NCBI GenBank assembly: GCA_041741015.1
Contig: JBGSKX010000006.1
Location: 2,495-66,494, forward strand
Reading direction: 5' to 3'
Origin: Pirellulales bacterium
GTDB lineage: Bacteria; Planctomycetota; Planctomycetia; Pirellulales; PALSA-1355
Length of the DNA stretch: 64,000 nucleotides
Shown here: positions 10,059-60,580 of the stretch, one piece after another
Layout: each line of letters begins with the position of its first letter
Numbering within the stretch: position 1 is the first letter of the stretch
Translations under genes and position numbers: made by a program
Notes under the pieces: model-generated
What the model was told of the DNA's origin: nothing
What the model saw: only the letters and a program-made list of their open reading frames with translations
The model's database searches: none

Positions 10059-10070
10059 GCGACTGGGATC

Positions 10071-17303: not shown

Positions 17304-17354
17304 CGAGCGGCGCGGTTTCGCCGGGCACTGGGCGCCCAAGACTCGCTAAAACCA

Positions 17355-17392
17355 ACCCGTCGCGGGATGACCCCCCGCGACGGGTTTTTTTT
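17355..17392 (+). terminator. Rho-independent terminator
   Basis: Stem cccgtcgcggg / cccgcgacggg followed by T9, about 50 nt after the stop at 17303. Confidence 0.8.
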
Positions 17393-17619
17393 GCGCGCGT
17401 GGGAAGCGTCTTAGAGTGCATTCTGCTTACTTTACGAAGCAAAGTGCGACCTTCTCGCCCCAGCTCGAAATGCCCCTCGACGCGCCCTGTGCGAAATCTA
17501 GAATGAACGTCGGGTTTCTCGCGCCTCCTGGACCTGCATGCGGGTATTTGGGCTCCAGGGTGATGCTGCAAAATGGTTTGCGGTTGTCATTTCGCGAGTA
17601 AGCGACTCTGGGCAAGCCG

Positions 17620-21848: not shown

Positions 21849-22092
21849 GCGCGTCGCGCTCAATCGCACGGGATTGTACCGGTAGCTCTCATGATAACAG
21901 GAACCCGGGCGGCAACCAGCATGGGAGATTGCCGGTTTAGCGTCCAGCACCCGCAAAGAATTGGTCGCGGCCGACGAATGACCTGCAGCCGACTGAGCCG
22001 TCTGGTACGCCGCGGCAGGGCAGCGCTATAATGGCCCACGCGGCAAGCCCACGGGCAGCTGTCCACCAATCATTTGCGGAGAACACTCTGGC

Positions 22093-29939: not shown

Positions 29940-30635
29940 TCACTCGCCGGGGGTGGTGACCAGCAGTTTTTCGGCAGCCGCCTGACCAAGTGTCGTTTCC
30001 GCCCCAGCAATCCGCACGGTGATGACGCCGCCTTCGGGTGTGTTGGCAATCACTTCTCCTGCCACACCGAGGGGTAAACCTGCGTTGCTCAAAAAACGCA
30101 GGAACTCGGGCGACTGGTCAATGACGCGCGAGAGCTGGAAGGTGTCGCCGACCTGGCACTCGGCCAGCGAACGGCTCTTGGGGACTTTTAGCGTGCCATC
30201 GGAGCTTGGAATCGGGTCGCCATGAGGATCGGCCTCGGGGTGGCCGAGGAACGCGTCGATGCGGTCGATGAGGCGATCGCTCACCGCATGTTCCATATGC
30301 TCGGCTTCTTCGTGGACTTCGTCCCAGCTGAGATCGAGCGTCTTGACGAGGAAAAGCTCGATAAGGCGGTGCCGCCGCACAACGCGGAGCGCCAGGGCCG
30401 AGCCGGCGCCTGTGAGCCGCACGCCCTCGTACGGCGTGTACGTGACCAGCTTACTCTCGCTGAGAGTTTTAAGCATGCTGGTTACTGTGCCGGGCGATAC
30501 TCCCAGGGCCGTAGCTAACTGCCCAGTCGCGGCATGGCCGTCGCTGGTATGGCAGATCTGGTAGATCGATTTGATGTAGTTCTCGACCGTCAGGCTTGGC
30601 AAGGCCGCCTCCCCGCACTTTCGACGTCTGCGCAC
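29940..30635 (-). CDS. DtxR/MntR-family metal-dependent transcriptional regulator with a C-terminal FeoA/SH3-like domain
   Basis: LTVENYIKSIYQI, the winged HTH ATGQLATALGVSPGTVTSMLKTL, the metal-site region EVHEEAEHMEHA..HPE.DPHGDPIP, and the C-terminal GDTFQLSRV. Confidence 0.85.
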   Translation of the reverse strand: MRRRRKCGEAALPSLTVENYIKSIYQICHTSDGHAATGQLATALGVSPGTVTSMLKTLSESKLVTYTPYEGVRLTGAGSALALRVVRRHRLIELFLVKTLDLSWDEVHEEAEHMEHAVSDRLIDRIDAFLGHPEADPHGDPIPSSDGTLKVPKSRSLAECQVGDTFQLSRVIDQSPEFLRFLSNAGLPLGVAGEVIANTPEGGVITVRIAGAETTLGQAAAEKLLVTTPGE

Positions 30636-30791
30636 GAATGAACCGCCAGTGGTATTCTAGCCCTCAATTGCGCAGGGAGCCATGAGAGCCAACGATTCTC
30701 GCGGCGGCCGGGTTGCCGGGCCCATTGCGGGAAGCACATGCTCGCGAGATGATGGCGGCAACTATTCGCCCGGGTTGCTTAGGAATCGGTC

Positions 30792-31742
30792 GTGCGTCCC
30801 TTAAACGAGCTTGCTCACGAATTGTGCGAACAACTGGTAGCCGAGGCTGCCGACTTGCGCGTTTCCGTCGCACAGTCGGGTAACGGCGTGCGACTGATCG
30901 ATTGCGGAATCACTGCCTCTGGCGGTTTGGAAGCTGGCCGACGACTGGCCGAGATCTGCCTTTCGGGACTGGGGCAAGTCAGCTACGTGCCGTCGCAATT
31001 GGCGGAAACCCCGGGCTTGGCGGTGCAAGTTGTCACGGATCGTCCACTCGAAGCCTGCATGGCTTCGCAGTATGCCGGCTGGCAGATCGCCGAAGGCAAA
31101 TACTTCGCGATGGGATCGGGTCCGATGCGGTCGCTTGCTCGCAAGGAGCCGCTGTTCGCCAAGATTGGATATCAGGAGTCTGCGAAAGTAGCCATCGGAG
31201 TGCTGGAAACCAGCAAGGTTCCGCCAGACGAGTTGTGCCACAAACTGGCGGAGGAGTGCGGCGTCTCGCCTGAAAAGCTCACATTGCTCATGGCGTCCAC
31301 TGCGAGCCTGGCCGGCATGGTGCAGATCGTCGCCCGAAGCGTCGAAACAGCGATGCACAAGCTGTTTGAACTGGGCTTCGATTTAGCACGCGTCGAGAGC
31401 GGCTTCGGAACGGCGCCGCTGCCGCCGGCATCTGCAGATAACCTGGTGGCGATTGGACGTACCAACGACGCAATTCTGTACGGCGGTGAGGTGACGCTGT
31501 TCGTGCGCGGCGATGACGCCAGCCTCGAGCAACTCGGCCCCAAGGTTCCCAGCGGTGCGTCGTCCGATCATGGGCAGCCGTTTGCCGCGATCTTCGCACG
31601 TGCGGGGCAAGATTTTTACAAGATCGATCCGCACCTGTTCAGTCCTGCACGGATCGTGCTTTCGAACCTGGACACGGGCCGCACGTTCGCGTTCGGTCGG
31701 ACGTTGCCACGGGTGATTCACGAATCTTTCGATCTGCGGTAG
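30792..31742 (+). CDS. mch: Methenyltetrahydromethanopterin cyclohydrolase (Mch)
   Basis: About 316 aa with LIDCGI, GGLEAGRRLAEICLSGLG, SQYAGWQI, FAMGSGPMRSLA, GRTNDAILYGG and DFYKIDPHLFSPA, as remembered for the methylotroph and planctomycete Mch. Confidence 0.85.
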   Translation: MRPLNELAHELCEQLVAEAADLRVSVAQSGNGVRLIDCGITASGGLEAGRRLAEICLSGLGQVSYVPSQLAETPGLAVQVVTDRPLEACMASQYAGWQIAEGKYFAMGSGPMRSLARKEPLFAKIGYQESAKVAIGVLETSKVPPDELCHKLAEECGVSPEKLTLLMASTASLAGMVQIVARSVETAMHKLFELGFDLARVESGFGTAPLPPASADNLVAIGRTNDAILYGGEVTLFVRGDDASLEQLGPKVPSGASSDHGQPFAAIFARAGQDFYKIDPHLFSPARIVLSNLDTGRTFAFGRTLPRVIHESFDLR

Positions 31743-31753
31743 GTGCGAATCTC

Positions 31754-32635
31754 ATGCACTTTGCCGTTCTCTGCTCACCGACGAGCTGGTATTTACAGGA
31801 CCTGCGCCGAGCGGCCGCTGGGGACCACGAGCTCACGCCGATTGCATTTCGCGACCTTGCTGCCGAGCTGGGGCCGTCTGGTCCGCGATTCATCGCGGGA
31901 GGTCTCGATCTTGCGGCCGTCGACGTGTTACTGGTCCGGACGATGCCGCCCGCATCGCTCGAGCAGGTTGTGATGCGAATGGACGTCCTGGGGCGACTTG
32001 AAGCGGCAGGAACGCTGGTCGTCAACTCCGCCCGGGCAGTGGAAGCCGCGGTGGACAAGTACCTGGCGAGCGCGAAGCTCGCTGCAGCAGGACTGAAGAC
32101 TCCCGAAACCATTGTGTGTCAGACCGTCGACGCAGCCATGGAGGCGTTTGCCCGCTTGGGCGGAGACGTGGTGCTGAAGCCGCTGTTTGGCGGCGAAGGT
32201 CGTGGAATCGCGCGGCTGGAAGATGAGGCGATCGCCCAACGCACGTTCAGCCTGCTCACCGGACTGGGGGCCGTGCTTTACGTGCAGCGGTTCGTCCCCC
32301 ATGATGGATGGGACATTCGCGTGCTGGTGGTCGGCGAGGGGATGTGGGCGATGCGGAGACGTAACCCGCTTGATTGGCGGACCAATGTGAGCCGCGGGGC
32401 GATAGCCGAGGCGATTGAATGCGATCCGCACTGGGCTCAACTGGCGCGGCGCGCGGCCGATGCGATTGGCGCCGTGATTGCCGGAGTCGATTTGCTGCCT
32501 GGCCGCGATCATGAGCTACACGTAATTGAAGTTAACGCGGTGCCTGGCTGGCAGGCGTTGGCGCGAACGCTGGAAGTCGACATCGCCCGCGAAGTACTCG
32601 ACTATGTTGGCGGGCAGGTCGCGAGGCAACAGTAA
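31754..32635 (+). CDS. ATP-grasp ligase of the RimK family (H4MPT-cluster associated, MptN-like)
   Basis: ATP-grasp blocks VVLKPLFGGEGRGI, YVQRFV and DIRVLVVG are present, and IEVNAVPGW follows them. The gene starts 12 nt after the mch stop. Confidence 0.75.
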   Translation: MHFAVLCSPTSWYLQDLRRAAAGDHELTPIAFRDLAAELGPSGPRFIAGGLDLAAVDVLLVRTMPPASLEQVVMRMDVLGRLEAAGTLVVNSARAVEAAVDKYLASAKLAAAGLKTPETIVCQTVDAAMEAFARLGGDVVLKPLFGGEGRGIARLEDEAIAQRTFSLLTGLGAVLYVQRFVPHDGWDIRVLVVGEGMWAMRRRNPLDWRTNVSRGAIAEAIECDPHWAQLARRAADAIGAVIAGVDLLPGRDHELHVIEVNAVPGWQALARTLEVDIAREVLDYVGGQVARQQ

Positions 32636-32661
32636 CCGTAGGCCAACGAGCGAAGTGATTC

Positions 32662-34353
32662 ATGTCCCGCGTGACGAACTCGACGGCGATTGCTGCTGTG
32701 CCCGCGCCCGTGAACGTAGCGCGGCGGTTGGCGGCAATGGCCGAGCGTATGCCGGGCGCGGTTGCCGTTGCCGTGCCGCGAAAAAGTCGGGGCCGGTTCG
32801 CGTACGACAGGTGCACGTTCGCGGAACTCGAAGCGGAGACAAATCGTATCGCGAGTGGCCTGCGCACATTGGGCGTCACGCCCGGGACGCGGATCGCGCT
32901 GCTCGTCAAGCCAAGCCGCGAATTCATCGCGCTGGTGTTCGGACTGTTCAAGGCCGGTGCGGTGATCATCCTGATTGATCCGGGCATGGGGCGGCGCAAT
33001 CTGCTGCGCTGTCTGGCCGATGCCGAGCCGGCAGGTTTCATTGCAATTCCTGCTGTGCATGGGCTGCGCCGCCTATTGCGATCGCGTTTCCCCAAGGCGC
33101 GGTTCAATGTCACGGTCGGGCGGCGGCTGTTCTGGGACGGAATTACTTACGCCGAGCTGCTCGAGCTGGGTTCATCCAAGCCGACATGCCAGGAGACCTC
33201 GGCCGACGATCCCGCCGCGATCATTTTCACCACAGGCAGTACGGGACCTCCCAAAGGCGTACTGTACCGCCATGGGAACTTCGACCGCCAGGTGAGAGAG
33301 ATCTCCGAGTTTTACGGAATTCAGCCGGGAGAGATCGATGTACCCGGCTTTCCACTTTTCGGGCTGTTTAATGCGGCGATGGGTGTGACGACGGTCATTC
33401 CCATCATGGACGCCTCGCGTCCCGCGCGCATCGATCCCAAGAAGTTCGTGGCCGTCGTGCAGGACTGGCAAGCCACGCAGTCGTTTGGCTCGCCGGCGAT
33501 TTGGAACCGCGTCGGCCAATACTGCGAAAAGCACAACGTGCGGCTGCCGCTGCAGCGTGTGATATCGGCCGGAGCGCCGGTGCCACCCCACGTGCTGGCG
33601 CGTATGAAAGCGGCGATCGCTTCGGACGGCGACGTGCATACCCCCTACGGAGCCACCGAGGCATTACCCGTCGCGTCGCTCTCGGCCAGCGAGATCTTGT
33701 CCGAAACGCGCCATCATTGGGCTCAGGGTGGGGGGACCTGCGTCGGCGGCCACTTTCCGGGCATCCAGTGGAAGATCATCGCGATCACGGATGAGCCGAT
33801 CGAATCGATCGACGACGTGCGGGAGCTTCCCCAAGGACAGATTGGCGAAATCATCGTCACGGGGTCGGTGGTCACACACGAGTATGTGACTCGCCGCGAA
33901 TCGAACGCCCTGGCGAAGATTTCCGACGGCCCACGCGTCTGGCACCGCATGGGGGACGTTGGCTATCTGGACGAGCGTGGCCGCTTTTGGTTCTGTGGCC
34001 GGAAAGCTCACCGGGTAGAAACCACGCACGGACCGATGTACTCGATTCCCTGCGAAGCGATCTTCAATCAGCATCCGGTAGTATACCGCTCAGCGCTCGT
34101 GGGCGTCGGGCAGACGGGTAAGCAGCGGCCGGTGATCATTGTCGAGCCATGGCCGGGAATGCGGCCACGCTGGCGAAAGGCGCGTGAAGCACTCATTGTG
34201 GAACTCGCACAGCTCGGTAAAGCGAATCCACTGACCGTTTCCATAGAGCAGTTTCTGATACACCCGGCGATGCCGGTGGACATTCGGCATAACGCCAAGA
34301 TATTTCGCGAGAAGTTGGCTCCCTGGGCGGCTCGCAAACTGGGATGGCACTAA
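32662..34353 (+). CDS. AMP-dependent synthetase/ligase (fatty-acyl-AMP ligase / OleC-like beta-lactone synthetase family)
   Basis: Adenylate-forming core motifs FTTGSTGPPKG, YGATE and GDVGYLDERGRFWFCGRK. It is followed, with a 10-nt overlap, by an OleD-like reductase. Confidence 0.8.
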   Translation: MSRVTNSTAIAAVPAPVNVARRLAAMAERMPGAVAVAVPRKSRGRFAYDRCTFAELEAETNRIASGLRTLGVTPGTRIALLVKPSREFIALVFGLFKAGAVIILIDPGMGRRNLLRCLADAEPAGFIAIPAVHGLRRLLRSRFPKARFNVTVGRRLFWDGITYAELLELGSSKPTCQETSADDPAAIIFTTGSTGPPKGVLYRHGNFDRQVREISEFYGIQPGEIDVPGFPLFGLFNAAMGVTTVIPIMDASRPARIDPKKFVAVVQDWQATQSFGSPAIWNRVGQYCEKHNVRLPLQRVISAGAPVPPHVLARMKAAIASDGDVHTPYGATEALPVASLSASEILSETRHHWAQGGGTCVGGHFPGIQWKIIAITDEPIESIDDVRELPQGQIGEIIVTGSVVTHEYVTRRESNALAKISDGPRVWHRMGDVGYLDERGRFWFCGRKAHRVETTHGPMYSIPCEAIFNQHPVVYRSALVGVGQTGKQRPVIIVEPWPGMRPRWRKAREALIVELAQLGKANPLTVSIEQFLIHPAMPVDIRHNAKIFREKLAPWAARKLGWH

Positions 34354-35351
34354 TGCGCGTGCTAGTCACTGGCGGCGGAGGTTTTCTAGGCCGCGCGATC
34401 ATCGAGCAACTGCTCGCTCGGGGCGACGAGGTTCGCAGCCTCGCGCGGGGCAATTACCCTGAGTTGGAAGCACGCGGCGTCGAATGTCTGCGCGGCGACA
34501 TTCGCGATGCAGCCAGAGTGTCCAGTGCGTGCGCCGACTGCGAGCTGGTGTTTCATACGGCCGCCGTGGCGGGCATCTGGGGACCTTGGGAGCACTTCTA
34601 CGGGATCAATGTGCTGGGGACACGGAACGTTATTGCGGCTTGTCGCGAGCGCAAAGTGCCGAAGCTCGTTTATACGAGCAGCCCCAGCGTGACATTCGGC
34701 GGTAACCCGCAGGAGAACGTTGACGAGAGCGTGGGCTACGCGAGCCGCTGGCTGTGCCATTACGCCCAGACCAAGGCGCTGGGCGAGCAGGAAGCCCTGG
34801 CTGCGAACACGCGGGCACTGGCGGTCTGCGCCTTGCGACCGCATTTGATTTGGGGGCCGGGCGACCAGCACTTGATTCCGCGGTTGATCGAGCGAGCTCG
34901 CAGCGGGCAGTTGCGCCGCGTCGGAAACGGCAAGAATCTGATCGACATGGTGTATGTGGACAACGCAGCCGCAGCTCATGTGCAGGCGGCCGAGGCCCTG
35001 TTGCCGGGTTCGCCGGTAGCGGGCCGGGCCTACTTCATCAGCCAAGGAGAGCCGGTCAACTGCTGGCAGTGGATCGACGAACTGCTCGGGCTCTCGGGTT
35101 TGCCGCCCGTCGAGCGGAGCATCTCGCTGTCGGCGGCGTGGCAGGTTGGTGCGGCCATGGAATGGGCGTACCGGTTGCTGCGTCTGACGGGTGAGCCGCG
35201 AATGACTCGATTTCTGGCGGGCCAGTTAGGGATGTCGCATTACTTCGACATCACGGCGGCGCGGCGAGATTTTGGCTATCGGCCTGGGGTCGGCAAAGAG
35301 GCTGGAATGGAGCGTTTACGCGTCACTCTGCGCGCGGATGAGTCGCATTAG
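34344..35351 (+). CDS. NAD(P)-dependent 3-beta-hydroxysteroid dehydrogenase/epimerase family reductase (OleD-like)
   Basis: VLVTGGGGFLG, the YAQTK YxxxK motif, ALRPHLIWGPGDQHLIPRL and AYFISQGEP. Confidence 0.8.
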   Translation: MALMRVLVTGGGGFLGRAIIEQLLARGDEVRSLARGNYPELEARGVECLRGDIRDAARVSSACADCELVFHTAAVAGIWGPWEHFYGINVLGTRNVIAACRERKVPKLVYTSSPSVTFGGNPQENVDESVGYASRWLCHYAQTKALGEQEALAANTRALAVCALRPHLIWGPGDQHLIPRLIERARSGQLRRVGNGKNLIDMVYVDNAAAAHVQAAEALLPGSPVAGRAYFISQGEPVNCWQWIDELLGLSGLPPVERSISLSAAWQVGAAMEWAYRLLRLTGEPRMTRFLAGQLGMSHYFDITAARRDFGYRPGVGKEAGMERLRVTLRADESH

Positions 35352-35547
35352 ACAAGCTTTGCGATACCGAATTGAGCGCTTTGCAGAGCAAAGTCATTCG
35401 CGACCGCGCAGGGGGCGTTTCACGCGCCTGGCGAGGCCTTGCCAGTGGCACGGAAAGCCGCTAATTTCAAGGGTTTGAGCGAGGTGGTCGAGGCGTGCGT
35501 AAGATCATGGTGTCAGGACGTTTTTGGATCTACACGGAAGTCGCGCC

Positions 35548-36804
35548 ATGATTGCCAACCCAGCCACCCAGCGACCGGATCACGAGCGAATCGTGATTAC
35601 CGGAGTCGGCCTTGCCGCTCCGAACGGCAACTCGCTGAGCGAGTTTCGCGAGGCTCTGCTCAACGGTCGCAGCGGCGTTTCGGAGTACGAGATTCGCTAC
35701 GTCGGCAAGACCTTGGCCGGCGTCTGCAATTTCGACGAGCTTCGCTACCAGAAGAAGAAGGAACTGCGCCGCGGCACCCGGGCGGCCAGCGTCGGCATCT
35801 ACTGTGCGAACGAAGCCGTGAAGGATGCCGGGCTGGACTGGCCCAACGTCGACAAGTCGATGGTGGGCATCTACATCGGCGTGACCGAGCACGGCAACGT
35901 CGAGACAGAAAACGAAATTTATGAGCTGCGCGGCTTCGACTATGACACGAAGTTCTGGTCGCATCACCACAATCCGCGAACAGTTGCGAACAATCCCGCC
36001 GGCGAGATCTCGCTGAACATGGGAATCACGGGGCCGCACTACACGGTGGGCGCCGCCTGTGCGGCGGGTAACGCCGGTTTGATCCAGGGTGCGCAGATGC
36101 TGCGGCTGGGCGAGTGCGACGTCGCGATTGCCGGCGGTGTTTCCGAGAGCGTGCGAACGTTCGGCATTTTTGCCAGCTTCGCCAGCCAGGGTGCGCTGGC
36201 CACGCATGCCGATCCGGCCAAGGCCTCGCGCCCGTTCGACACCGAGCGGAACGGGATCGTGGTGGCCGAAGGGGGCTGCCTGTACATCCTCGAGCGGCTG
36301 AGCGACGCCAAGCGGCGCGGCGCGAAGATCTATGGCGAAGTGGCCGGCTACGCAATGAACAGCGACGCGAGCGACTTCGTGCTGCCGAACCCGGTGCGCC
36401 AGGCTGAGTGTGTGCAACTGGCATTGCGGCGGGCGCGCTTGACGCCCCAGCAGGTGGACATCGTGAGCACGCACGCGACGGGGACCTCGAGCGGAGACGT
36501 GCAGGAGTGCACGGCGCTGCGCAGCGTGTTCGCCGGTTCGGAATCGACCTGGTTCAATAACGCCAAGAGTTTCATTGGCCACGCGATGGGTGCCGCCGGT
36601 TCGCTGGAGTTGGGCGGAAACCTGCCGGCGTTTGCCGACGGCGTGTGCCATCCTACGATCAACGTTGACACGCTCGACCCCGAGTGTGCCCTGGACGGAC
36701 TGGTGGTCAACGAGGCCCGCGAAAAGAATCGCGTGAACGTCATTCTGAACAATTCGTTCGGAATGCTCGGGATCAACTCGGTCGTCATCATTACCCGCAT
36801 CTAA
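35548..36804 (+). CDS. Beta-ketoacyl-ACP synthase (FabF/FabB-type KS)
   Basis: RIVITGVGL, active-site Cys in GAACAAG, and the His pair in STHATGT and FIGHAMGAAG. The ATG at 35548 is preferred over TTG 35524. Confidence 0.88.
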   Translation: MIANPATQRPDHERIVITGVGLAAPNGNSLSEFREALLNGRSGVSEYEIRYVGKTLAGVCNFDELRYQKKKELRRGTRAASVGIYCANEAVKDAGLDWPNVDKSMVGIYIGVTEHGNVETENEIYELRGFDYDTKFWSHHHNPRTVANNPAGEISLNMGITGPHYTVGAACAAGNAGLIQGAQMLRLGECDVAIAGGVSESVRTFGIFASFASQGALATHADPAKASRPFDTERNGIVVAEGGCLYILERLSDAKRRGAKIYGEVAGYAMNSDASDFVLPNPVRQAECVQLALRRARLTPQQVDIVSTHATGTSSGDVQECTALRSVFAGSESTWFNNAKSFIGHAMGAAGSLELGGNLPAFADGVCHPTINVDTLDPECALDGLVVNEAREKNRVNVILNNSFGMLGINSVVIITRI

Positions 36805-36834
36805 CGAGCCTGCTTCACTGGAGAACCTGAGGGC

Positions 36835-37095
36835 ATGGGTCCTGCTGAAATCAAAGAGACGATTCTCGACATCCTGGAAGGCATCGCGCCGGACGAAGAT
36901 CTGAGCGGCCTGAAGGATGACGTGCCGCTGCGCGAGCAACTGGAGCTCGACAGCATGGACTTTCTGGACATCGTGATGGAGCTCCGCAAGCGTTACCGGG
37001 TGCAGATTCCCGAGGACGACTACCTGGAGCTGGCCACGATGAACAGCACGGTGAACTACCTGACGCCGCTGATGAAGGACCTGGAGAAGGTCTGA
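36835..37095 (+). CDS. Acyl carrier protein
   Basis: 86 aa with the phosphopantetheine attachment motif LELDSMDFLDIV. Confidence 0.88.
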   Translation: MGPAEIKETILDILEGIAPDEDLSGLKDDVPLREQLELDSMDFLDIVMELRKRYRVQIPEDDYLELATMNSTVNYLTPLMKDLEKV

Positions 37096-37212
37096 TCCTC
37101 CCTCGGACGAACTGATCCCAATGGGCCAAAAGAACCCGTTGGGCGAATCCGCGAATCGCACCAAATCCCACCTGGCAACATCCGCGACGCCAGTCGCGAG
37201 CTAAGAGCGTTC

Positions 37213-38637
37213 ATGTCCAGCTACGACACGATCATCATTGGCGCGGGATTGTCAGGACTGGCGGCCGGCATTCGGCTCGCGCACTACGATCGGCGGGTGT
37301 GCATCCTCGAACGGCACACCACGATCGGCGGACTGAACTCGTTCTATCGCCTGGGCGGGCGAAACTACGACGTCGGCCTCCACGCCGTGACGAATTACAC
37401 CCCCAAAGGCGCTCGCAAAGGCCCGCTCGCCCGGCTGTTACGCCAGTTGCGGTTCCGCTGGGAAGACTTCGCCCTGGTGCCGCAGATCGGCTCACAGATC
37501 GCATTTCCGGGCATTTCGCTCAATTTCACAAACGACTTCGAATTGTTCCGCAGCGAAGTGCACCAGGCGTTTCCCGCCGAACGGGCGAATTTCGACAAGT
37601 TGTCCGCGGCGATTATGGACTACGACGACCTGGATGGCGCGCTTGCCTCGCAGTCGGCCCGGAGTATCGTGACGCAGTGGATCCGCGACCCGCTGCTGAT
37701 CGACATGTTGTTCTGCCCGCTGCAGTACTACGGCGGCGCCCGCGAGCACGACATGGACTTCGGGCAATTCTCGATCATGTTCCGCAGCATCTTTCAGGAA
37801 GGTTTCGCGCGACCCTGGTCGGGCATCCGCCAGATTCTTAAGAACCTGGTACGTCGGTTTAAAGAACTGGGGGGCGAGCTGCGTTTGCGAGCCGGCGTGC
37901 AACGGATGGAAGTCGACGACGATCGTGTGAGCCGGATTGTGCTGGACGACGGCAGTGAGATCACGGCCGATCGTGTGCTTTCCTCGGCGGGGCTCGTGGA
38001 AACTCTGGCGATGGTCGATCAGCGGCCCGCGCGGACTCCGCAGCCGGGTCAGCTGTCGTTCGTCGAGGGGATCGCCGTGCTGAATGAGCAGCCGCAGACA
38101 CTCGGTTGCGATCGCTCGGTCATCTTCTTCAACGATTCGGACAAGTTCCGCTGGCAGAAGCCGGATGAACTGGTGGATGTGACGAGCGGGGTGGTCTGCC
38201 TGCCGAACAATTTCAAGTTCGATCGCCCGCTGGAAGACGCCATGGTTCGCGTGACAGCGCTGGCAAACTACGACCGGTGGCGCTCGCTGCCGCCGGTCGA
38301 CTATCAGGCTGCCAAACAGGCGACTTACGAACGGATTATGGAGATAGTCGGGCGATTCATTCCGGAGTACCGGGCGCGCACCGTGGCCAGCGACATGTTC
38401 ACGCCGATGACTGTCGAACGGTTCACCGGTCACGCCAATGGCGCCATTTACGGTTCGCCCGAGAAACGCAAGCACGGGACGACGCATCTGAAGAACTTAT
38501 TCCTGTGTGGCACCGACCAGGGGTTCGTGGGCATCATCGGCGCGATGTTCAGCGGCATCATGATCGCCAATCGGCACGTGCTGGGCACTGTTTCCACGGA
38601 CCTCGAACAAGTCGCGGCCGTCGGCGTCGACTTCTAA
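37213..38637 (+). CDS. FAD-dependent oxidoreductase of the phytoene desaturase (CrtI) family
   Basis: N-terminal dinucleotide fold DTIIIGAGLSGLAAGIRLA ... ILERHTTIGG. The length (474 aa) and overall layout are CrtI-like. Confidence 0.75.
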   Translation: MSSYDTIIIGAGLSGLAAGIRLAHYDRRVCILERHTTIGGLNSFYRLGGRNYDVGLHAVTNYTPKGARKGPLARLLRQLRFRWEDFALVPQIGSQIAFPGISLNFTNDFELFRSEVHQAFPAERANFDKLSAAIMDYDDLDGALASQSARSIVTQWIRDPLLIDMLFCPLQYYGGAREHDMDFGQFSIMFRSIFQEGFARPWSGIRQILKNLVRRFKELGGELRLRAGVQRMEVDDDRVSRIVLDDGSEITADRVLSSAGLVETLAMVDQRPARTPQPGQLSFVEGIAVLNEQPQTLGCDRSVIFFNDSDKFRWQKPDELVDVTSGVVCLPNNFKFDRPLEDAMVRVTALANYDRWRSLPPVDYQAAKQATYERIMEIVGRFIPEYRARTVASDMFTPMTVERFTGHANGAIYGSPEKRKHGTTHLKNLFLCGTDQGFVGIIGAMFSGIMIANRHVLGTVSTDLEQVAAVGVDF

Positions 38638-38667
38638 GAGAAAGGCGCGCTCCGCCGCGATTGCTGT

Positions 38668-40113
38668 ATGGCCCGAGACTTTCTAAAAGGCGCGCGAGAC
38701 AGCTACGACTGCATCGTCATCGGCAGCGGTCTGGCCGGAATGACGGCCGCCAATACGCTGGCTCGTGCCGGGCAGTCGGTACTGCTGCTCGAGCAGCATT
38801 ACAAGCTGGGGGGCATGGCCACCTGGTTCAAACGCCCCGGCGGGCACATTTTCGACATCTCGCTGCATGGTTTTCCGGTCGGGATGATCAAGAGCTGCCG
38901 CCGCTATTGGTCGAAGGAGATTGCCGATTCGATCGTGCAGCTCAGGAACATCCGCTTCGACAATCCGATGTTCTCGCTGACGACGACGTTCAATCGCGAG
39001 GATTTCACGCGGCTGCTGATCGAGAAATTCCAGGTACCCGAGGCCGACGTGGTGGCGTTTTTCGACGCCGCACGCGGCATGAACTTCTACGACGATCAGT
39101 CGACCACCGTCGGCCAACTGTTCCAGAAGTTTTTTCCCGGTCGCGAAGACGTGATCCGGCTGCTGATGGAGCCGATTACGTACGCCAACGGTTCGACGCT
39201 GGAGGATCCTGCGATCAGCTATGGCATCGTGTTTTCGAACTTCATGTCCAAGGGCGTATTCACGTTCGAGGGCGGAACCGATCGGCTGATCGATCTGATG
39301 CACAAGGAGCTTGTGGCCAGCGGCGTCGACGTGCGAATTCGTTGCGACGTGGAAAAAATCCTGGTCCGCGACGGCCGCGTATGTGGAGTGCGGGTCAACG
39401 GTCGTGACATCGCCGCCCGCTCGGTCGTCTCGAATGCGAATCTGAAAAGCACGATCTTCCGCATGGTCGGCGAGGAGCATTTCGACCGCAAGTTCGTCGA
39501 CGACGCGCAGGCCGTGCGGCTCAATAATTCAAGTTGCCAGGTGTATATGGCGCTCAAGCCGGGAAGCGACCTGGATGAGAGCCTGGGCGACCTGCTGTTC
39601 AGTTCAACTGCGCCGTTATTTCGGACGGACGCATTGCTGTCGCGAGACATCACTAGCCGAACGTATTCTTTCTACTATCCCCGCACGCGGCCCGGCAGCG
39701 ATCGATCGCTGATTGTGTCGAGCACAAACGCTCGCTACGAGGACTGGGCGAAACTCTCGAAGGAAGAATACGAGGACAGCAAGCGAGACCTGGTTGAAAC
39801 AACGATCGATGCTCTCGCACGCTATATTCCCGACATTCGCGCGCGACTGGCGCATGCCGAGGCCTCCACGCCAATTACCTTCCGTCATTACACCCAGCAC
39901 TTAAATGGGGCCAGCTTCGGCACGAAGTTCGAGGGGCTCGCCGTGAGCAGGGCAATTCCAGAACAGGTCGGCGGCTTGTATCACGCGGGCAGTGTTGGAA
40001 TCATCATGTCTGGCTGGCTGGGCGCGATGAACTACGGTGTGATCGTGGCCAACGACGTCGATTCCTGGTTGCTGAAATCCGCAACGCGCCCGCCTCTCGC
40101 CGCCACCGCGTGA
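38668..40113 (+). CDS. FAD-dependent oxidoreductase of the phytoene desaturase (CrtI) family (second copy)
   Basis: [19 protein letters not shown] ... [10 protein letters not shown]. It is 481 aa and similar in architecture to the previous gene. Confidence 0.75.
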
Positions 40114-40572
40114 ATGAGATCCCCCATGAGCTTGCAAGAGATCGAACAAGCGATTCCGCATCGTCCGCCGTTCCTGCTGGTCGACGAAATCGTGGACCGC
40201 GGTGAGGACTGGATCATCTGCCGGAAGACGTTCCACGGGGACGAGTACTTTTACGCTGGCCACTATCCGGAGTTTCCAATCACGCCGGGCGTGTTACTGT
40301 GCGAAGCAGCGATGCAGGCCGGCGCGATTTTGCTCTCGCATCGCGAAACGCCACCGGAGGGTGGAATTCCAGTTGCGGCGGGTTTGAACAACGTGCGTTT
40401 CCGGCGGATGGTTCGGCCGGGCGACACCATCGAAATGGAAGTCAGGCTCACAAACCGCATCTCGAAAGCCTGGTTCCTATCGGCAAAAGTTTCCTGCGGC
40501 GGGCAGCTTGCCGTCCGCATGGACTTCATCTGCGCCGTGGCCCAGCCGGAAATGAATGGCAACGGCAACTAA
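40114..40572 (+). CDS. FabZ/FabA-like 3-hydroxyacyl-ACP dehydratase (hotdog fold)
   Basis: [14 protein letters not shown] and [20 protein letters not shown] (catalytic His and Glu context). The start abuts the previous stop (TGAATG). Confidence 0.85.
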
Positions 40573-40588
40573 CGGGACCCGGTGCCGA

Positions 40589-41404
40589 ATGGCCACTGAT
40601 TTTCTGCAACTGGCCGGCAAAACGATCCTCGTGTTCGGCTTGGCAAATCGCAAGAGCGTCGCCTGGCACGTGGGCCAGGTGCTGCGAGAGGCCGACGCAA
40701 ATGTGGTTTATGTCGTACGCAGCGAACAACGCCGCGACGGAGTGCGGAAGCTGCTTGGACCGGAGACGGACATTTACGTCTGCGACGTCGAGCATCAGGA
40801 CCAGATCGAGCGAATCGCCGCTGAAGTCTCTGCGCGGCATCCCAAGCTGCATGGCCTCGTGCATTCGATCGCGTTTGCCGACTACGGCGAAGGGCCGAGG
40901 CCGTTTCATGAAACGTCGCGGTCGGCATTCCTGCGCGCGGTGGATATTTCCTGTTTTTCACTGGTGGCGCTGGCCAACGCGTTTAAGCCCGCGCTGGATG
41001 TGAGTGCGTCGGTCGTAGCGATCTCGATCTCAACCACACGGATGGCGGCCGAGAACTACGGCTACATGGCGCCGGTGAAGGCTGCGCTCGATTCTTCGCT
41101 CGTGTTCCTAGCGAAGTCGTTTAGCCGGTTCTCCGAAGTACGGTTCAATGCCGTCTCGCCGGGCTTGCTCAAAACTTCGGCCTCGGCCGGCATTCCCGGC
41201 TACATCGACAGCTACCTGTACGCCGAGCAGGTAACTCTTCGCCGCCGCGCGCTTCAAACCGCGGAAGTGGCGAGCACCGTCGCATTTTTGTTGAGCCCGC
41301 GCTCCAGCGGCATCAATGCTCAGCAATTGGTAATCGACGCCGGCATGAGCGTGAATTATTTCGACGAGCGGATTGTGCAGCGGTGCGTGGACTTGGCCGA
41401 GTGA
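40589..41404 (+). CDS. FabI-like enoyl-ACP reductase (SDR)
   Basis: [34 protein letters not shown] (the Y..K of FabI) and [12 protein letters not shown] align with my memory of E. coli FabI. ATG at 40589. Confidence 0.8.
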
Positions 41405-41587
41405 TCTCTTCTGAGAACCGCTCTGATTTGTTTGCGTGCGAATCTCACCGGCAGCGCCGAGCTGCTTGACCGGAAAGTTGGTCGCTTGCGATTCCAAATG
41501 TGGTCTCGCGGCAACCAGTCCGATCGGGTGGCGAGCAGCGATCAAGGCGCAATCCCTTACAGCCACTGGCTTTCGGTCCGGATATTG

Positions 41588-41616
41588 TTGACACTCGACA
41601 GAGAAGCTCTTAGTTT
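41588..41616 (+). promoter_or_regulatory. Sigma-70-type promoter candidate for kaiCB
   Basis: TTGACA (41588-41593), a 17-nt spacer, then TAGTTT (41611-41616). It sits in a local AT-rich island about 130 nt upstream of the kaiC start region. Confidence 0.35.
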
Positions 41617-41742
41617 AAAATTTCGCAGAATCGGTCGCGGCTATCCTTCCGGTGTCTTTTTTGCACAGGGACGCCGCCGCGATTGATACGACGATGCGGG
41701 CGTACAAGGCGGGTCTCCCCGCTGTCTAGTCTGTTCGGAGAC

Positions 41743-43491
41743 GTGACATTGAGTGTTTCCACCGCAAAATCTGCTGCGCCGCAATTGGCGAAGGCCCCGA
41801 CCGGCATCGATGGCTTCGACCAGATCACCGGGGGCGGGCTGCCGCAGGGGCGCCCCTCGCTGGTGTGCGGCAGCGCCGGCTGCGGCAAAACACTGTTCGG
41901 TCTCGAGTTCATCATTCATGGAGCGACCCAGTTTAATGAGCCCGGCGTGATCATGACGTTCGAGGAGACCGAGCGTGATCTGACCGAAAACGTGCGTTCG
42001 CTGGGCCACGACCTGGAGCAGCTCTCGGCCGATGGAAAAATCATGATCGATCACGTGCGCGTCGAGCGGAGCGAGATCGAAGAGGCGGGCGAATACAACC
42101 TCGACGGCTTGTTCCTCAGGCTCGGACTGGCGATCGATGCTATCTGCGCAAAGCGCGTGATGCTCGACACGCTCGAAGCGCTGTTCTCGGGATTCACCAA
42201 CGAAGCCATCTTGCGCGCCGAGCTGCGGCGACTGTTTTTGTGGCTTAAAGATCGCGAAGTCACGACGGTGATCACCGGCGAGCGTGGCGACGGCGCACTC
42301 ACGCGGCAGGGTCTGGAAGAGTACGTCTCCGACTGCGTGGTCCTGCTCGATCATCGAGTGCTGGACCAGGTGTCGACGCGTCGATTGCGGATTGTGAAGT
42401 ATCGCGGCAGCGCGCATGGCACGAATGAGTATCCGTTCCTGATCGATGAAGACGGTATTTCCGTGCTCCCGATCACATCGTTGAGCCTGAAGCACCAGGC
42501 CTCTGAAGAGCGAATCTCGACTGGCATCGCACGGCTCGACGAGATGCTGGGCGGCGGATTCTATCGGGGCACGAGCATTCTCATCTCGGGAACTGCCGGG
42601 ACCGGCAAGAGCAGCTTGGCGGCGTATATGGTAGAGGCGGCGTGTCGGCGCGGCGAACGCTGCTTGTACTTTGCCTTCGAGGAGGCTCCCGCACAGATCG
42701 TGCGAAACATGCGGAGCATTGGCCTGAACCTGGGGCAGTGGACTGACAACGGCTTGCTGCAGTTTCATGCCCAGCGCCCTTCGCTGTACGGACTCGAGAT
42801 GCACCTGGCCGTGATGCACAAAGCCATCGAGGATGCCAAGCCGTCGGTGGTTGTGATCGATCCGATCAGCAACCTCTCGAGCGGCGGCACACTGGGCGAA
42901 GCGGGCGCGATGCTGGTGCGGATCATCGACTTTCTCAAGGTCAAAGGCATTACCACGCTGCTTACGAATCTGACTTCGGACGCCTCGGCCCGCGAGTCGA
43001 CCGACGTCGGCGTTTCCTCGCTGGTCGATTCCTGGATTCTGCTGCGCGACATCGAACTTGGCGGCGAGCGCAACCGCGGGTTGTACATCATCAAATCGCG
43101 CGGCACCGCCCACTCCAACCAGATTCGCGAGTTCCTCTTGACCGACAAGGGAATCGATTTGCTGGATGTTTACGTCGGCCCCGAAGGCGTGCTCACAGGC
43201 TCGATGCGATTGGCCCAGGAAGCCCGCGAGCGGGCGGTCGAAGTTGCCAAAAGCCAGGAGGACGACCGCCGCGCTCGGATTCTGGATCGGAAGCGGAAGG
43301 CGATTGCGGCGCAGATCGCGGCACTGGAAGCGGAACTGTCGGCCGACGAGACCGAGGCCGAGGAGGACGCCGAGAAACTGTCGCAGCGGATTGCTCGGAT
43401 GGCGCAGGATCGACACGAAATGGCAGTTAGCCGCAAAGCAGATGGAAATGGCATATCAAACAAGGGGATGAAAGTCGGAGACCAGGGATGA
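41743..43491 (+). CDS. kaiC: Circadian-clock-type ATPase KaiC (double RecA domain) with a C-terminal coiled-coil-like extension
   Basis: The N-terminal CI domain has [22 protein letters not shown] and TFEETERD. The CII domain has [18 protein letters not shown] and FAFEEAPAQ. The phosphosite region is [16 protein letters not shown]. The start is uncertain: in-frame GTG 41743, TTG 41749 (GGAGA 9 nt upstream), or the track TTG 41683. Confidence 0.9.
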
Positions 43492-43820
43492 GCGAATCGC
43501 ACATACAAGTCAATGATGGCGCAAAAGCCGACGAGGGCTTTTGGGAACTGAGGCTCTATGTGGCCGGACAGACTGGCAAGAGCATGATCGCGATGCAGAA
43601 TCTGCAGCGCATCTGCGACGAGCATCTGGCTGGGCAGTACCGAATCGAAGTGGTCGATCTGCTCAAACAGCCGCAACTGGCCAAGGGGGATCAGATCGTC
43701 GCGATTCCCACCTTGGTGCGCTCGCTGCCCAACCCGGTCCGCAAGATCATTGGCGATCTTTCCAATACCGAAAAGACGCTGGTCGGTTTGCAATTGCGTC
43801 CCGCCGTCGGCTCGAGCTAA
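43488..43820 (+). CDS. kaiB: KaiB
   Basis: [27 protein letters not shown] ... [40 protein letters not shown]. The ATG overlaps the kaiC stop (ATGA). Confidence 0.92.
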
Positions 43821-43834
43821 GGACTTCGCTCCGA

Positions 43835-45505
43835 ATGACCGATGTCACACGAACGATGGATGCACCCGCCGCGGAACTGCAACGCGAGAACGCGTATTTG
43901 CGGCAGCGCGTCGCCGAGCTTGAAGAGACACTCGAAGTCCTGACCGCGATCCGCACTGGACAGGTGGATGCGTTGATCGTGGACGACGATACTGATCGCC
44001 CGGAGGTGCGCACCCTGGAATCTGCGGACAGGATCCATCTGCGCCTGGCGCAGCAGGCCGCCAACGCCGGGACCTGGGAATGGGATCTGGCGAACCGGTA
44101 CGTGCGCGGCTCGGAAAGCTTCTGGTCGCTGTTGGGAATCACGCCCGCGCCCGCGCAATTGCCCGAAGAATATTGGCCAGACCTGATGGCGACCGAAGAC
44201 CAAGAGCGGATCCAGACGCGGCTGCAACAGGCGCTCAAAGCTGAAGATGAGTTTTATGAGGAACTGCGGATCACGCGCGTCGATAGTGAGCCGCGCTGGC
44301 TGGCGGTGCGGGGACGTATCGTACGCGGGTTTGAAGGCAGGGCAGCGCGCGTGATTGGGATCAGCCTGGACATTACCGAGCGAAAAGCGATTGAAGACGC
44401 TCTGCGGCTGGCCGATCGGCGCAAGGATGAGTTTCTGGCCATGCTGGCACACGAACTGCGCAATCCGTTGGCTGCCATCGGCAACGCGTTTCGGTTGTTT
44501 CGGGGTGTCAGCCTGAGCGAATCGGAGCGAGACTGGACCGGAGAAGTTCTGGAGCGGCAGATTCTGCAGCTTCAAAGCCTGATTGACGATCTGCTCGACA
44601 TCTCGCGGATTACCCAAGGCAAGGTCAAGCTACGGCGGAGAACGCTGGAAATCAATGAGCTGTTGGGACGCGTGACGGAAACCTTGCGGCCGCGGTTTGC
44701 CGCCGCGCAGCAGAATTTGTCCGTCGAGCTCTCCGGGGAGTCGCTGTGGGTTCATGCCGATGAATCGCGGCTCGAGCAAGTGTTCGTCAATTTGCTGACG
44801 AATGCGGCCAAATACACCAAAATGGGCGGCCGTATCTGGCTCAGCGGCCGCCGCGAAGGTAATGAGGTGGTCATCATCGTCAAGGACACCGGCATCGGCA
44901 TTGTGCCGGAAATGCTGCCCCGCGTGTTTGAACTGTTTGCCCAGGCCGAGCGCGGGCTGGAGCGAACAGAAGGAGGCCTCGGGATCGGCCTTTCACTGGT
45001 TCGCCGAATTGTGGAACTGCACGAGGGGAGTGTTACCGCGTACAGTGAAGGTTCGGGGCAGGGGAGCGAGTTCACGGTTCGCTTGCCCGCGTGTGAATCG
45101 CAAAAGAAGTCCGTTCCACTGGAGGCTCCCGTTATCGAAACCTCGGCAAATCCACGTCGCGTATTGATCGTCGATGACAATCGCGACGCTGCTCAGACCA
45201 TGGCCCTGCTGATCAAGCTTTCGGGTCACGAGACGGCCACCGCGCACGACGGACCGGAAGCGCTGGCCATGCTGGACGTAGTGAAACCGGAGGTGGCGCT
45301 GCTCGATATCGGCTTGCCCAAGATGGACGGCTATGAGCTGGCGCGACGAATTCGTGAGCGGGTGAGCGACGTCTATCTGATCGCGGTGTCCGGATATGGG
45401 CAGCCGGAGGATAAAGCGCGTTCCAGCGAAGCAGGCTTCGACGAGCACTTTGTCAAGCCGGTCGATTCGACGCAGTTGATTGCGAGCTTGACGCGCCGGC
45501 GCTAG
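43835..45505 (+). CDS. Hybrid sensor histidine kinase/response regulator (coiled coil, PAS, HisKA, HATPase, REC)
   Basis: From the ATG at 43835. PAS-like GTWEWDL ... ITERK and the H-box FLAMLAHELRNPL. The N and G boxes are NLLTNAAKYT, DTGIGI and GLGIGLSLV. The REC domain has VLIVDDNRD ... ALLDIGLPKMDG ... FVKP. The track start at 43541 overlaps kaiB and is probably an over-extension. Confidence 0.88.
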   Translation: MTDVTRTMDAPAAELQRENAYLRQRVAELEETLEVLTAIRTGQVDALIVDDDTDRPEVRTLESADRIHLRLAQQAANAGTWEWDLANRYVRGSESFWSLLGITPAPAQLPEEYWPDLMATEDQERIQTRLQQALKAEDEFYEELRITRVDSEPRWLAVRGRIVRGFEGRAARVIGISLDITERKAIEDALRLADRRKDEFLAMLAHELRNPLAAIGNAFRLFRGVSLSESERDWTGEVLERQILQLQSLIDDLLDISRITQGKVKLRRRTLEINELLGRVTETLRPRFAAAQQNLSVELSGESLWVHADESRLEQVFVNLLTNAAKYTKMGGRIWLSGRREGNEVVIIVKDTGIGIVPEMLPRVFELFAQAERGLERTEGGLGIGLSLVRRIVELHEGSVTAYSEGSGQGSEFTVRLPACESQKKSVPLEAPVIETSANPRRVLIVDDNRDAAQTMALLIKLSGHETATAHDGPEALAMLDVVKPEVALLDIGLPKMDGYELARRIRERVSDVYLIAVSGYGQPEDKARSSEAGFDEHFVKPVDSTQLIASLTRRR

Positions 45506-59503: not shown

Positions 59504-60580
59504 ATGAAGTACACGAAAGTCGCGCTAGAGGGCCTCGCCTACACGCTGCCCGAGGAAATCGTCAGCTCTACGGACCTCGAAGCCCGACTGGAGCCGCTCT
59601 ACCGCCGGCTGCGGCTGCCCGAGGGACGCCTGGAACTCATGACCGGAATTCGCGAACGGCGCTTCTGGCCTGTCGGCACGCTGCCGGGGGACCACAGCAT
59701 CGTCAGCGTGCGCAAGCTGCTGGAAAATGCGCAGCTCGATCCGCGCGAGGTTGGGATGCTGGTGCACGCCTCGGTCTGTCGCGACTATATCGAGCCGGCC
59801 ACCGCCTGCCGGGTACATCACGATGCGGGTCTGCCGGCCGAGTGCCTGGTGTACGACATTTCGAACGCCTGCCTGGGCATCCTGAATGGCATGATCCAGG
59901 TGGCGAACGCGATTGAGCTGGGCCAGGTTCGGGCCGGCATCGTCGTGGGCACGGAAGACGCCCGGCCAATCGTCGAAAACACGATTCGGCTGCTTAACAC
60001 CGACAATTCGCTCACGCGCGACCAGATGAAATTGGCCGTCGCCACTCTGACGCTCGGCTCGGGGAGCGTGGCGGTGCTGCTCACACATCGTGAGTTAGGC
60101 CGTAAGGAGAGCCGGATTCTGGCCGCCCACGGCCGGGCTCACACGGTGGGGAACGCTCTCTGCCGCGGGACGTATCAGCCGGTGCCAGGTGCTGATGGTT
60201 CGATCACGAGCGTCGCGCCGGTCATGCAGACGGACAGCGAGCTGCTGCTGGTCGAAGGCATCGCCGCAGCTGGGCCGACGTTCCAGGGCTTTCTGGGGGA
60301 GGCGGCGTGGTCGCGGGCGGACATCTCTCGCACGATCTGCCACCAAGTGGGGAGCGCTCACCGAAAATTGATGCTGAGCACGTTGGAACTCGATCCGACG
60401 CGGGACTTCACAACCTACGAAACACTCGGAAACACGGGCTCCGTGGCGCTGCCCATTACGCTGGCAAAGGCGGCCGAAGCCGGGGTGCTGCGGGCCGGCG
60501 ATCGCGCGGCCTTGATGGGCATTGGCTCGGGAGTGAATGTGCTGATGATGGCCGTCGAGTGGCAGTGCAGGGCGTCCTAA
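59504..60580 (+). CDS. Thiolase-fold condensing enzyme, FabH-like; closest to my memory of the OleA type
   Basis: SVCRDYIEPATA, DISNACLGILNGM, ATLTLGSGS, LCRG, TDSELLLVEGI, CHQVG, LGNTGSVALPITL and GDRAALMGIGSGVN align block by block with my recollection of Xanthomonas OleA. Confidence 0.8.
   Translation: MKYTKVALEGLAYTLPEEIVSSTDLEARLEPLYRRLRLPEGRLELMTGIRERRFWPVGTLPGDHSIVSVRKLLENAQLDPREVGMLVHASVCRDYIEPATACRVHHDAGLPAECLVYDISNACLGILNGMIQVANAIELGQVRAGIVVGTEDARPIVENTIRLLNTDNSLTRDQMKLAVATLTLGSGSVAVLLTHRELGRKESRILAAHGRAHTVGNALCRGTYQPVPGADGSITSVAPVMQTDSELLLVEGIAAAGPTFQGFLGEAAWSRADISRTICHQVGSAHRKLMLSTLELDPTRDFTTYETLGNTGSVALPITLAKAAEAGVLRAGDRAALMGIGSGVNVLMMAVEWQCRAS

Follow-up and report, generated by a model that had tools for sequence, protein, structure and literature searches.

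The DNA examined here is a 64,000-nucleotide stretch of a Pirellulales genome (GenBank assembly GCA_041741015.1, contig JBGSKX010000006.1, positions 2,495 to 66,494), referred to below as the window. At positions 32662-41404 of its forward strand lie eight densely spaced genes, which open reading frame (ORF) prediction combined with Pfam and NCBIfam scans assigns, in this order, to an OleC-like ligase, an OleD-like reductase, a FabF-like beta-ketoacyl-acyl carrier protein (ACP) synthase (KS), an ACP, two flavoenzymes of the CrtI family (Crt1 and Crt2), a FabZ-like dehydratase (DH) and a FabI-like enoyl-ACP reductase (ER). An earlier, sequence-only reading of the same stretch had listed nine packed, co-directional genes; all families it listed are found at their positions, and the packing and the common direction are borne out, whereas the count has to be corrected to eight. 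As it had described, the OleC and OleD genes overlap by 10 nt (34344/34353) and those of Crt2 and DH abut with a gap of 0 nt (40113/40114); the DH and ER genes overlap as well, by 17 nt. The ORF of the KS is readable from a TTG at 35524, with the ATG at 35548 being the likelier start, which leaves 196 nt between OleD and KS. Two genes of the same direction, mch and a rimK-like gene, lie upstream with gaps of 11 and 26 nt and would extend the run to ten. A scan of positions 30500-42000 for consensus promoters and terminators returned counts not above those of shuffled controls and is thus uninformative on operon structure. GC content is about 60% and even over the whole window, with no signal of a foreign island. 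Pfam scans of the eight genes detected no ketoreductase (KR), no acyltransferase or malonyl transferase (MAT) and no OleB, in agreement with the earlier reading of the cluster.

The first gene (32662..34353, +) encodes an OleC-like adenylate-forming enzyme of 563 residues, a putative beta-lactone synthetase of the Pfam AMP-binding family, with the motifs FTTGSTGPPKG at residue 189 and YGATE at residue 329. It passes the cutoff of NCBIfam PRK09274 (697 bits, cutoff 478) and stays under those of two OleC equivalog models (578 and 523 bits, cutoffs 900 and 850). The best acyl-CoA ligase model reaches at most 197 bits, far under the scores of the OleC models, and some of the homologues at ~70% identity carry the JGI name olefin beta-lactone synthetase. 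The second gene (34344..35351, +) encodes an OleD-like NAD(P)H reductase of 335 residues belonging to the 3beta-HSD family (Pfam 3Beta_HSD, 189 bits), in which a YxxxK motif (YAQTK) was found. Against the NCBIfam OleD models it scores 412 and 398 bits, which is short of their cutoff (580) and well ahead of HpnA, the next family, at 140 bits. The assignment of this pair as OleC- and OleD-like, made earlier from the letters, is hence upheld by best NCBIfam matches that lead by a wide margin (OleC/OleD or PRK09274), with OleC and OleD scores under the equivalog cutoffs.

The pair had also been called an orphan, which is no longer tenable, as an OleA homologue at 59504..60580 (+) had been missed that closes the cluster in relatives. 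This protein of 358 residues is predicted to be a non-decarboxylative Claisen thiolase (NCBIfam PRK09258, 437 bits, cutoff 285). Its top matches in the PDB are the Xanthomonas campestris OleA structures 3row, 3s1z and 4ku2 at 192 bits, and true FabH proteins reach at most 75 bits. The Cys, His and Asn of the active site, together with the Glu that serves as the base in OleA, align with X. campestris OleA, and all four residues are invariant in seven cluster-linked orthologues. Counting this homologue with the eight cluster genes, all nine proteins could be assigned to a family and have intact active-site motifs.

The genes for KS, ACP, DH and ER make up most of a type II elongation cycle. The KS (35548..36804, +) contains the N- and C-terminal ketoacyl-synt domains of Pfam and has Pseudomonas aeruginosa FabF as its best solved relative (227 bits), to which the Cys-His-His triad proposed earlier aligns in full, as does the Lys. 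Its gating loop reads GMLG and not the canonical GFGG, as it does in 50 of 54 orthologues; this deviation would fit unusual acyl substrates. Identity of the KS across phyla amounts to 56-85%. The stand-alone ACP (36835..37095, +, 86 residues, Pfam PP-binding) carries the DSM serine motif in LELDSMDF; the LDSMDF noted before was thus found, as were the two ligase motifs. The DH (40114..40572, +, 152 residues, Pfam FabA, 69 bits) retains its catalytic His and Glu, and scores 112 bits against the NCBIfam FabZ cutoff of 113 and 108 against 155 for a second model. Precomputed Pfam matches for the DH of relatives are ApeP-like or ApeI-like, flagged as weak for ApeP-like in locus L002 only. The ER (40556..41404, +, 282 residues, Pfam adh_short_C2, 189 bits) is a FabI-like short-chain dehydrogenase/reductase; all its leading NCBIfam and PDB matches are to FabI, among them 3oif with 129 bits, and the Y-x6-K signature is kept in 24 of 24 orthologues.

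An antisense ORF of 544 residues (35530-37164, -) spans the KS and ACP genes, and similar antisense ORFs occur in four further loci. It has the lowest GC content at third codon positions (0.63) among the retained ORFs and in all likelihood merely shadows coding sequence that is conserved and rich in GC.

Between ACP and DH lie the two flavoenzymes of the CrtI/CrtISO superfamily, Crt1 (37213..38637, +, 474 residues, Pfam Amino_oxidase and NAD_binding_8) and Crt2 (38668..40113, +, 481 residues, Pfam Amino_oxidase). Family scans and alignments agree with the earlier description of two paralogous flavoenzymes followed by a FabZ-like DH and a FabI-like ER. Identity between Crt1 and Crt2 is 25% over the full length, pointing at ancient paralogues from an old duplication. 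Crt2 is conserved at 64-85% across loci. With CrtI, CrtD and CrtISO the flavoenzymes share the fold and the FAD-binding N-terminus: for an AlphaFold2 model of Crt1 with a predicted local distance difference test score (pLDDT) of 79, the best structural matches are CrtI 4dgk and 4rep. In contrast, their scores fall under the thresholds of the CrtI, CrtD, CrtN and CrtISO families. The best NCBIfam match, itself weak, is carot_isom (89 and 87 bits for Crt1 and Crt2, cutoff 587), TIGR02734 gives 67.5 and 80.8 bits (cutoff 238), and PDB sequence searches gave remote CrtI matches only (46 and 27 bits to 4dgk). The fold search hence upholds a CrtI-like fold and not a function. The carotenoid genes CrtB and CrtM were not found in the cluster, where the neighbours are KS, ACP, DH and ER. 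A fatty acyl chain as substrate has a precedent in Rhodobacter sphaeroides, whose CrtI-like UfaD desaturates fatty acyl chains in furan fatty acid synthesis and acts on phospholipid-bound methylated chains instead of a carotenoid. UfaD is not known to be associated with KS, ACP or ole genes. Two paralogues would fit two activities that position double bonds for methylene-interrupted cis-polyenes during elongation; alternatively, both could be acyl desaturases.

The arrangement of these genes becomes clearer upon comparison with related genomes. Homologues of Crt1 at 55-90% identity number in the thousands, nearly all of them from Pirellulales and other Planctomycetia, and the six-gene set from KS to ER (hereafter the module) occurs widely across Pirellulales and Planctomycetales. 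We compared 80 genome loci around Crt1 (±10 kb) from Pirellulaceae, Thermoguttaceae, Lacipirellulaceae, Gimesia, Fuerstiella and Planctomicrobium, counting the partners of Crt1 among loci with enough flank. On this basis KS accompanies Crt1 in 49 of 65 loci and ACP, adjacent to the KS, in 52 of 65; Crt2 comes after Crt1 in 34 of 61. The remaining partners are DH (33/61), ER (29/61), OleD (17/51), OleA (10/49) and OleC (5/47). On a contig of 569 kb (L089), the order is mch-rimK-oleC-oleD-KS-ACP-Crt1-Crt2-DH-ER, after which come oleA, in convergent orientation, and a gene for a C26 peptidase. The same contiguous order from oleC to the convergent oleA is found in L003 and L064, and L004, whose contig starts inside oleD, likewise has the convergent oleA right after ER. 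In L002, L030, L048 and L065, oleA lies 1-5 kb downstream. Hence, in relatives the six genes from KS to ER are nested between oleC-oleD and oleA, and the window holds a rearranged version of this cluster. The same gene order recurs in dozens of independent genomes, which indicates that the cluster is not a chance arrangement.

The rearrangement in the window concerns the block that holds oleA. Relative to L003, L004 and L089, the genes glgB(-), RNase H(-), peptidase C26(-) and oleA(+) at 54955-61000 are inverted and moved by ~18 kb, and between ER and the displaced block lie KaiC, a hybrid kinase, topA and other genes. The KaiC-family double ATPase (602 residues) and the kinase, of PAS-HisKA-HATPase-receiver architecture, occupy 41683-45505 directly downstream of the cluster, at the place where relatives have oleA; a KaiC-like gene also follows Crt1 in L050. 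A gene for AcpS, a holo-ACP synthase, at ~60577-61000 (-) converges on oleA with a 4-nt overlap; relatives do not show this adjacency, which probably arose as a side effect of the rearrangement. In L002, the closest large contig, two PT-HINT-domain genes (609 and 650 residues) lie between ER and oleA at 14337-18122.

Relatives outside the Planctomycetia display a different set of arrangements. A search of 1.84 billion representative proteins, clustered at 50% identity, for relatives of Crt1 (E<=1e-30) yielded 316 clusters with named members in Opitutaceae, Puniceicoccales, Phycisphaerae, Auribacterota and Bacteriovoracaceae, and the module was found in metagenome-assembled genomes (MAGs) of Verrucomicrobiota, Auribacterota and Bdellovibrionota. 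In a Bacteriovoracaceae MAG (L087), a single operon comprises KS, ACP, a CrtI-like gene, a haloalkane-dehalogenase-like hydrolase, an AMP ligase and a 3beta-HSD reductase. The last three of these are OleB-like, OleC-like (PRK09274, 454 bits) and OleD-like (340 bits); the ligase, reductase and KS of the window are 35%, 42% and 56% identical to their L087 counterparts, and DH and ER are absent from this set. A low-GC MAG (L078) has the genes OleA-like, KS, ACP, OleA-like, KS, Crt1, Crt2, KR, DH, ER, phosphopantetheinyl transferase (PPTase) and malonyl transferase. This is the fullest version of the module (positions 1-11609), with a further Amino_oxidase-family gene on the opposite strand at 12592-14157; its taxonomic label, Dehalococcoidales, may be wrong through a binning error. 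An Auribacterota genome (L086) carries KS-ACP-Crt1-Crt2-KR-DH-ER, and an Opitutaceae MAG (L084) carries KS-ACP-Crt1 near a Crt2-like gene inside which the contig ends. A neighbour in L084 annotated as 3Beta_HSD was considered as OleD and rejected; it is a sugar epimerase (Epimerase 184 bits, 3Beta_HSD 40 bits) and was not counted as linkage. As L078 has its own KR, PPTase and malonyl transferase, the module is, judging from its gene content, predicted to be a genuine self-standing acyl-chain synthase, able to carry its own KR, PPTase and MAT. It is joined to ole genes in at least two, arguably three, independent architectures.

With moderate confidence, we read the locus as an ole gene cluster that encloses a dedicated acyl-chain synthase of the dissociated type, which would feed the Ole enzymes. 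In the pathway that we infer from the gene set, KS, ACP, DH and ER, together with FabD and FabG of the cell, would assemble a special acyl chain with the private ACP as its carrier, and Crt1 and Crt2 would introduce or reposition double bonds while the chain is bound to it. OleA would then join two such chains head-to-head, OleD would reduce the resulting 2-alkyl-3-keto acid and OleC would close the beta-lactone. Finally, decarboxylation of the beta-lactone by an OleB encoded elsewhere would yield a long-chain olefin similar to C31:9 and, like it, probably polyunsaturated. The earlier reading had left the product between a desaturated lipid, a beta-lactone and a hydrocarbon; the presence of oleA in the window, and its position at the end of the cluster in relatives, favors the hydrocarbon over the other two.

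Several observations weigh against this reading. The OleC and OleD scores fall short of the NCBI equivalog cutoffs, and in the window oleA lies 18 kb from the cluster and OleB is missing. An ole gene is found near Crt1 in 15 of 38 well-flanked loci, leaving 23 of 38 with none within 10 kb, and in many genomes (Stieleria, Rhodopirellula, Pirellula) the module itself is split. Both L086 and L084 carry the module with no ole genes nearby. In L083, a Crt1 homologue of 43% identity stands in an unrelated context next to dnaA and comEC, indicating that the functional family has a boundary, above ~45% identity. The related flavoenzymes of Kuenenia had no CrtI activity and gave no product in Escherichia coli (Javidpour 2016, PMC4790861).

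Among the alternatives, the one that survives best is a modified fatty-acid or polyene pathway with no head-to-head condensation, which we consider unlikely. Here the ligase would be a fatty acyl-AMP ligase (FAAL) priming the ACP, the 3beta-HSD reductase would supply the missing KR, and the product would be a desaturated or conjugated fatty acid and not an olefin. Ligase, ACP and KS together form a common priming arrangement, and the ligase and reductase scores under the OleC and OleD equivalog cutoffs are in line with such roles. Moreover, KR and OleD are distributed in a complementary fashion: none of the planctomycete loci, where OleD is common, has a KR in the cluster, and L078 and L086 have a KR and no OleD nearby. 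This leaves room for the OleD-like protein as KR and for the ligase as loader. It is, however, outweighed by at least ten loci with a linked OleA homologue that has the Glu specific to OleA, and by L087, in which KS, ACP and a CrtI-like gene are joined to the full oleB-oleC-oleD trio in the absence of DH and ER. In addition, ligase and reductase score far better on OleC and OleD models than on any FAAL or KR model.

A second alternative keeps the Ole-coupled pathway and changes only its end. If OleB does not act, the product would be a long-chain (polyunsaturated) beta-lactone, or a ketone where coupling to OleBCD is lacking; we hold this to be unlikely as well. No alpha/beta-hydrolase gene was found among the scanned ORFs of the window, either by family or by tblastn with the OleB-like protein of L087, and Pfam scans of flanking ORFs found none in the planctomycete clusters examined. 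In the planctomycete loci, the same tblastn query gave a single match, to an incomplete hydrolase where L052 ends. In L010, L016 and L088, the ORFs that separate oleC from oleD were considered as OleB and rejected, being GYF-domain proteins or of unknown family and unrelated. Beta-lactones decarboxylate thermally in the inlet of a gas chromatograph and can thereby pass for olefins. On the other hand, Pirellulaceae share a strongly conserved family of haloalkane-dehalogenase-like hydrolases (70-88% identity), and one of its members is named by JGI cis-3-alkyl-4-acyloxetan-2-one decarboxylase, which is the OleB enzyme. In Stieleria maiorica (L090), the OleB-like gene is located away from the ole genes, beside CitG-like and PTPS genes. 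Since the family is conserved and yet unlinked, it is plausible that OleB is encoded apart from the ole genes in this lineage, which, together with the wide reporting of C31:9 from planctomycetes, argues for the olefin over the beta-lactone or ketone.

It is improbable, in our view, that the ole genes and the private fatty-acid-synthase-like set are unrelated lipid pathways lying side by side through shared regulation or genomic drift. This would accommodate the many loci and phyla in which the module has no ole genes near, and the rearrangement in the window demonstrates that oleA can be separated from the rest. The module is, however, placed between oleD and oleA and not beside the cluster, a second phylum fuses a different subset of it to oleBCD, and a third lineage pairs OleA-like genes with KS genes. 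With three independent architectures, drift is hard to invoke.

A ladderane-type or otherwise cyclised lipid pathway is highly improbable and, at this locus, as good as refuted: there is a resemblance of the gene families to kuste3603-3608 (PMC4790861), and the DH is equally close to anammox FabZ structures and to ordinary FabZ, but radical S-adenosylmethionine (SAM) or SAM-methylase genes, which anammox ladderane clusters contain, were not found in or beside the cluster, 60% GC and tetrahydromethanopterin (H4MPT) genes mark a Pirellulales-like and not an anammox-like genome, and the module is found widely among lineages that produce no ladderanes. One locus labelled Candidatus Kuenenia stuttgartiensis (L080) provides no anammox link either; with 59% GC throughout and a planctomycete-type KS-ACP-Crt1, its label is almost certainly a binning error. 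The remark in the sequence-only reading that similar sets had been discussed for anammox planctomycetes is correct as far as type II fatty acid synthase (FASII) genes with phytoene-desaturase-like candidates are concerned (PMC2649909, PMC4790861); its ladderane part is not supported.

Published work offers a context for the olefin reading. In Shewanella and Photobacterium, Pfa makes 16:4n-3 on its own ACPs and the Ole product is C31:9; OleA uses the Pfa-derived acyl-ACP directly, and ole genes can adjoin pfa (PMC6463001). The n-C31:9 hydrocarbon is a characteristic neutral lipid in many planctomycetes (PMC3327967). A census of pfa-like clusters from 2011 lists Gemmata and Planctomyces limnophilus as the only planctomycetes, with no mention of Blastopirellula, P. 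maris, R. baltica or Opitutaceae (PMC3098273). Desulfotalea psychrophila produces C31:8 and C31:9, and pfa was not found in it; its FASII clusters contain phytoene-desaturase-like genes, apparently adjacent to each other as DP2405/DP2406, judging from the consecutive locus tags (Rattray et al. 2009, PMC2649909). From the clusters of Kuenenia and Desulfotalea, the same authors hypothesised a new anaerobic route to polyunsaturated fatty acids (PUFA) and polyunsaturated hydrocarbons (PMC2649909). In Kuenenia, kuste3603-3608 comprise ACP, FabZ, FabF and a phytoene-desaturase-like gene (PMC4790861), and a review from 2026 still treats the Rattray-type PUFA route as open (PMC13459092).

The only proven source of C31:9 precursors is the Pfa megasynthase, and the module gives a clonable candidate for the missing route. 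By analogy, it would do with type II proteins what the Pfa synthase does for Ole in Shewanella, and it may explain C31:9 in planctomycetes that have no pfa. C31:9 was also reportedly detected by Sukovich et al. in 2010 in Planctomyces maris and Opitutaceae TAV2. More tentatively, KS-ACP-Crt1-Crt2-DH-ER might constitute a flavoenzyme-dependent type II polyunsaturated acyl synthase, a pfa-independent source of 16:4-type chains for C31:9 in Planctomycetes, Verrucomicrobia and Desulfotalea; we regard this more specific proposal as possible and, on the whole, doubtful. The Crt paralogues would in that case replace FabA-like domains, one catalysing trans-2 to cis-3 and the other trans-2 to cis-2 isomerisation or desaturation. 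If true, this would provide a first function for the large family of CrtI-like flavoenzymes represented by the 316 clusters found at E<=1e-30. It would also bear on the role of the related phytoene-desaturase-like genes in anammox lipid clusters, and a six-gene route to polyunsaturated chains would be useful for engineering.

Some of the other genes of the window touch on cofactor metabolism. Directly upstream of oleC, positions 30792-32635 hold mch, encoding methenyl-H4MPT cyclohydrolase, and the RimK/MptN-like ATP-grasp gene, and their adjacency to oleC is kept in L002, L016, L018, L023 and L089. CitG-like and PTPS genes, such as those beside the OleB-like gene of S. maiorica, are said to accompany genes of H4MPT-cofactor biosynthesis. 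At 6230-8126 (-), a CofH/MqnC-like gene (6230-7324), which is the sole radical-SAM gene in the window, adjoins a VitK2_biosynth gene of MqnA/MqnD type; these two indicate a futalosine route to menaquinone. A polyprenyl synthase is encoded at 18096-19157, and tandem paralogous PEP-CTERM-anchored proteins of 257 and 285 residues at 2454-4544. The NrdR ORF at 21246-21956 (-) is 236 residues long and matches the NrdR zinc-ribbon model twice, as compared with orthologues of 156 and 204 residues in L088 and L089; it may be an over-extended start call or contain a duplicated ribbon.

Comparison with known systems sets the locus apart from each of them in a different way. No characterised pathway or description with this architecture was found in the literature searched, which agrees with the earlier reading. 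Housekeeping fab genes are distinguished by score (FabF 312 bits against a cutoff of 494, FabI 174 against 391, ACP 34-37 against 66-71), by GMLG instead of GFGG in the KS and by the lack of KR and MAT in the cluster. Pfa differs in that the proteins here are discrete and single-domain, with 90 bits against the PfaA cutoff of 1010. Aryl-polyene clusters, with their KS/CLF pairs, ApeI/ApeP dehydratases, thioesterase and LolA-like and MMPL export genes, differ as well: the cluster here has only one KS, and thioesterase and export genes were not found in it.

The closest likeness is to the Ole and Pfa-Ole systems. As in OleABCD of Xanthomonas, Shewanella and Micrococcus, the locus has OleA, OleC and OleD homologues with conserved catalytic residues, and oleC and oleD are adjacent and overlapping. 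Unlike in these, oleD and oleA are separated by KS, ACP, two flavoenzymes, DH and ER, the genes run oleC-oleD...oleA instead of oleABCD, and OleB is unlinked. With the pfa-ole linkage of Shewanella, Photobacterium and Geobacter it shares a secondary synthase with its own ACP that is physically linked to ole genes, and the proposed logic, in which OleA would draw on a private ACP, is the same. Pfa is a type I megasynthase that combines tandem ACPs, DH domains resembling FabA and an ER of the PfaD type; the synthase here, in contrast, consists of discrete type II proteins and two CrtI-family flavoenzymes. The ole component is hence of a known kind and partly annotated already. The embedded module, like the way in which it is coupled to Ole, appears to be undescribed in the literature searched. 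By family description, the FASII clusters of Kuenenia stuttgartiensis and D. psychrophila are alike in grouping ACP, FabF-like KS, FabZ and Amino_oxidase flavoenzymes; they differ in that radical-SAM genes, methylase genes and a number of divergent KS paralogues are present too, and a link to ole is not described for them. Among published proposals, the module is closest to the hypothesis of Rattray et al. from 2009, and its nesting within the ole genes provides the direct physical link to Ole that this hypothesis lacked.

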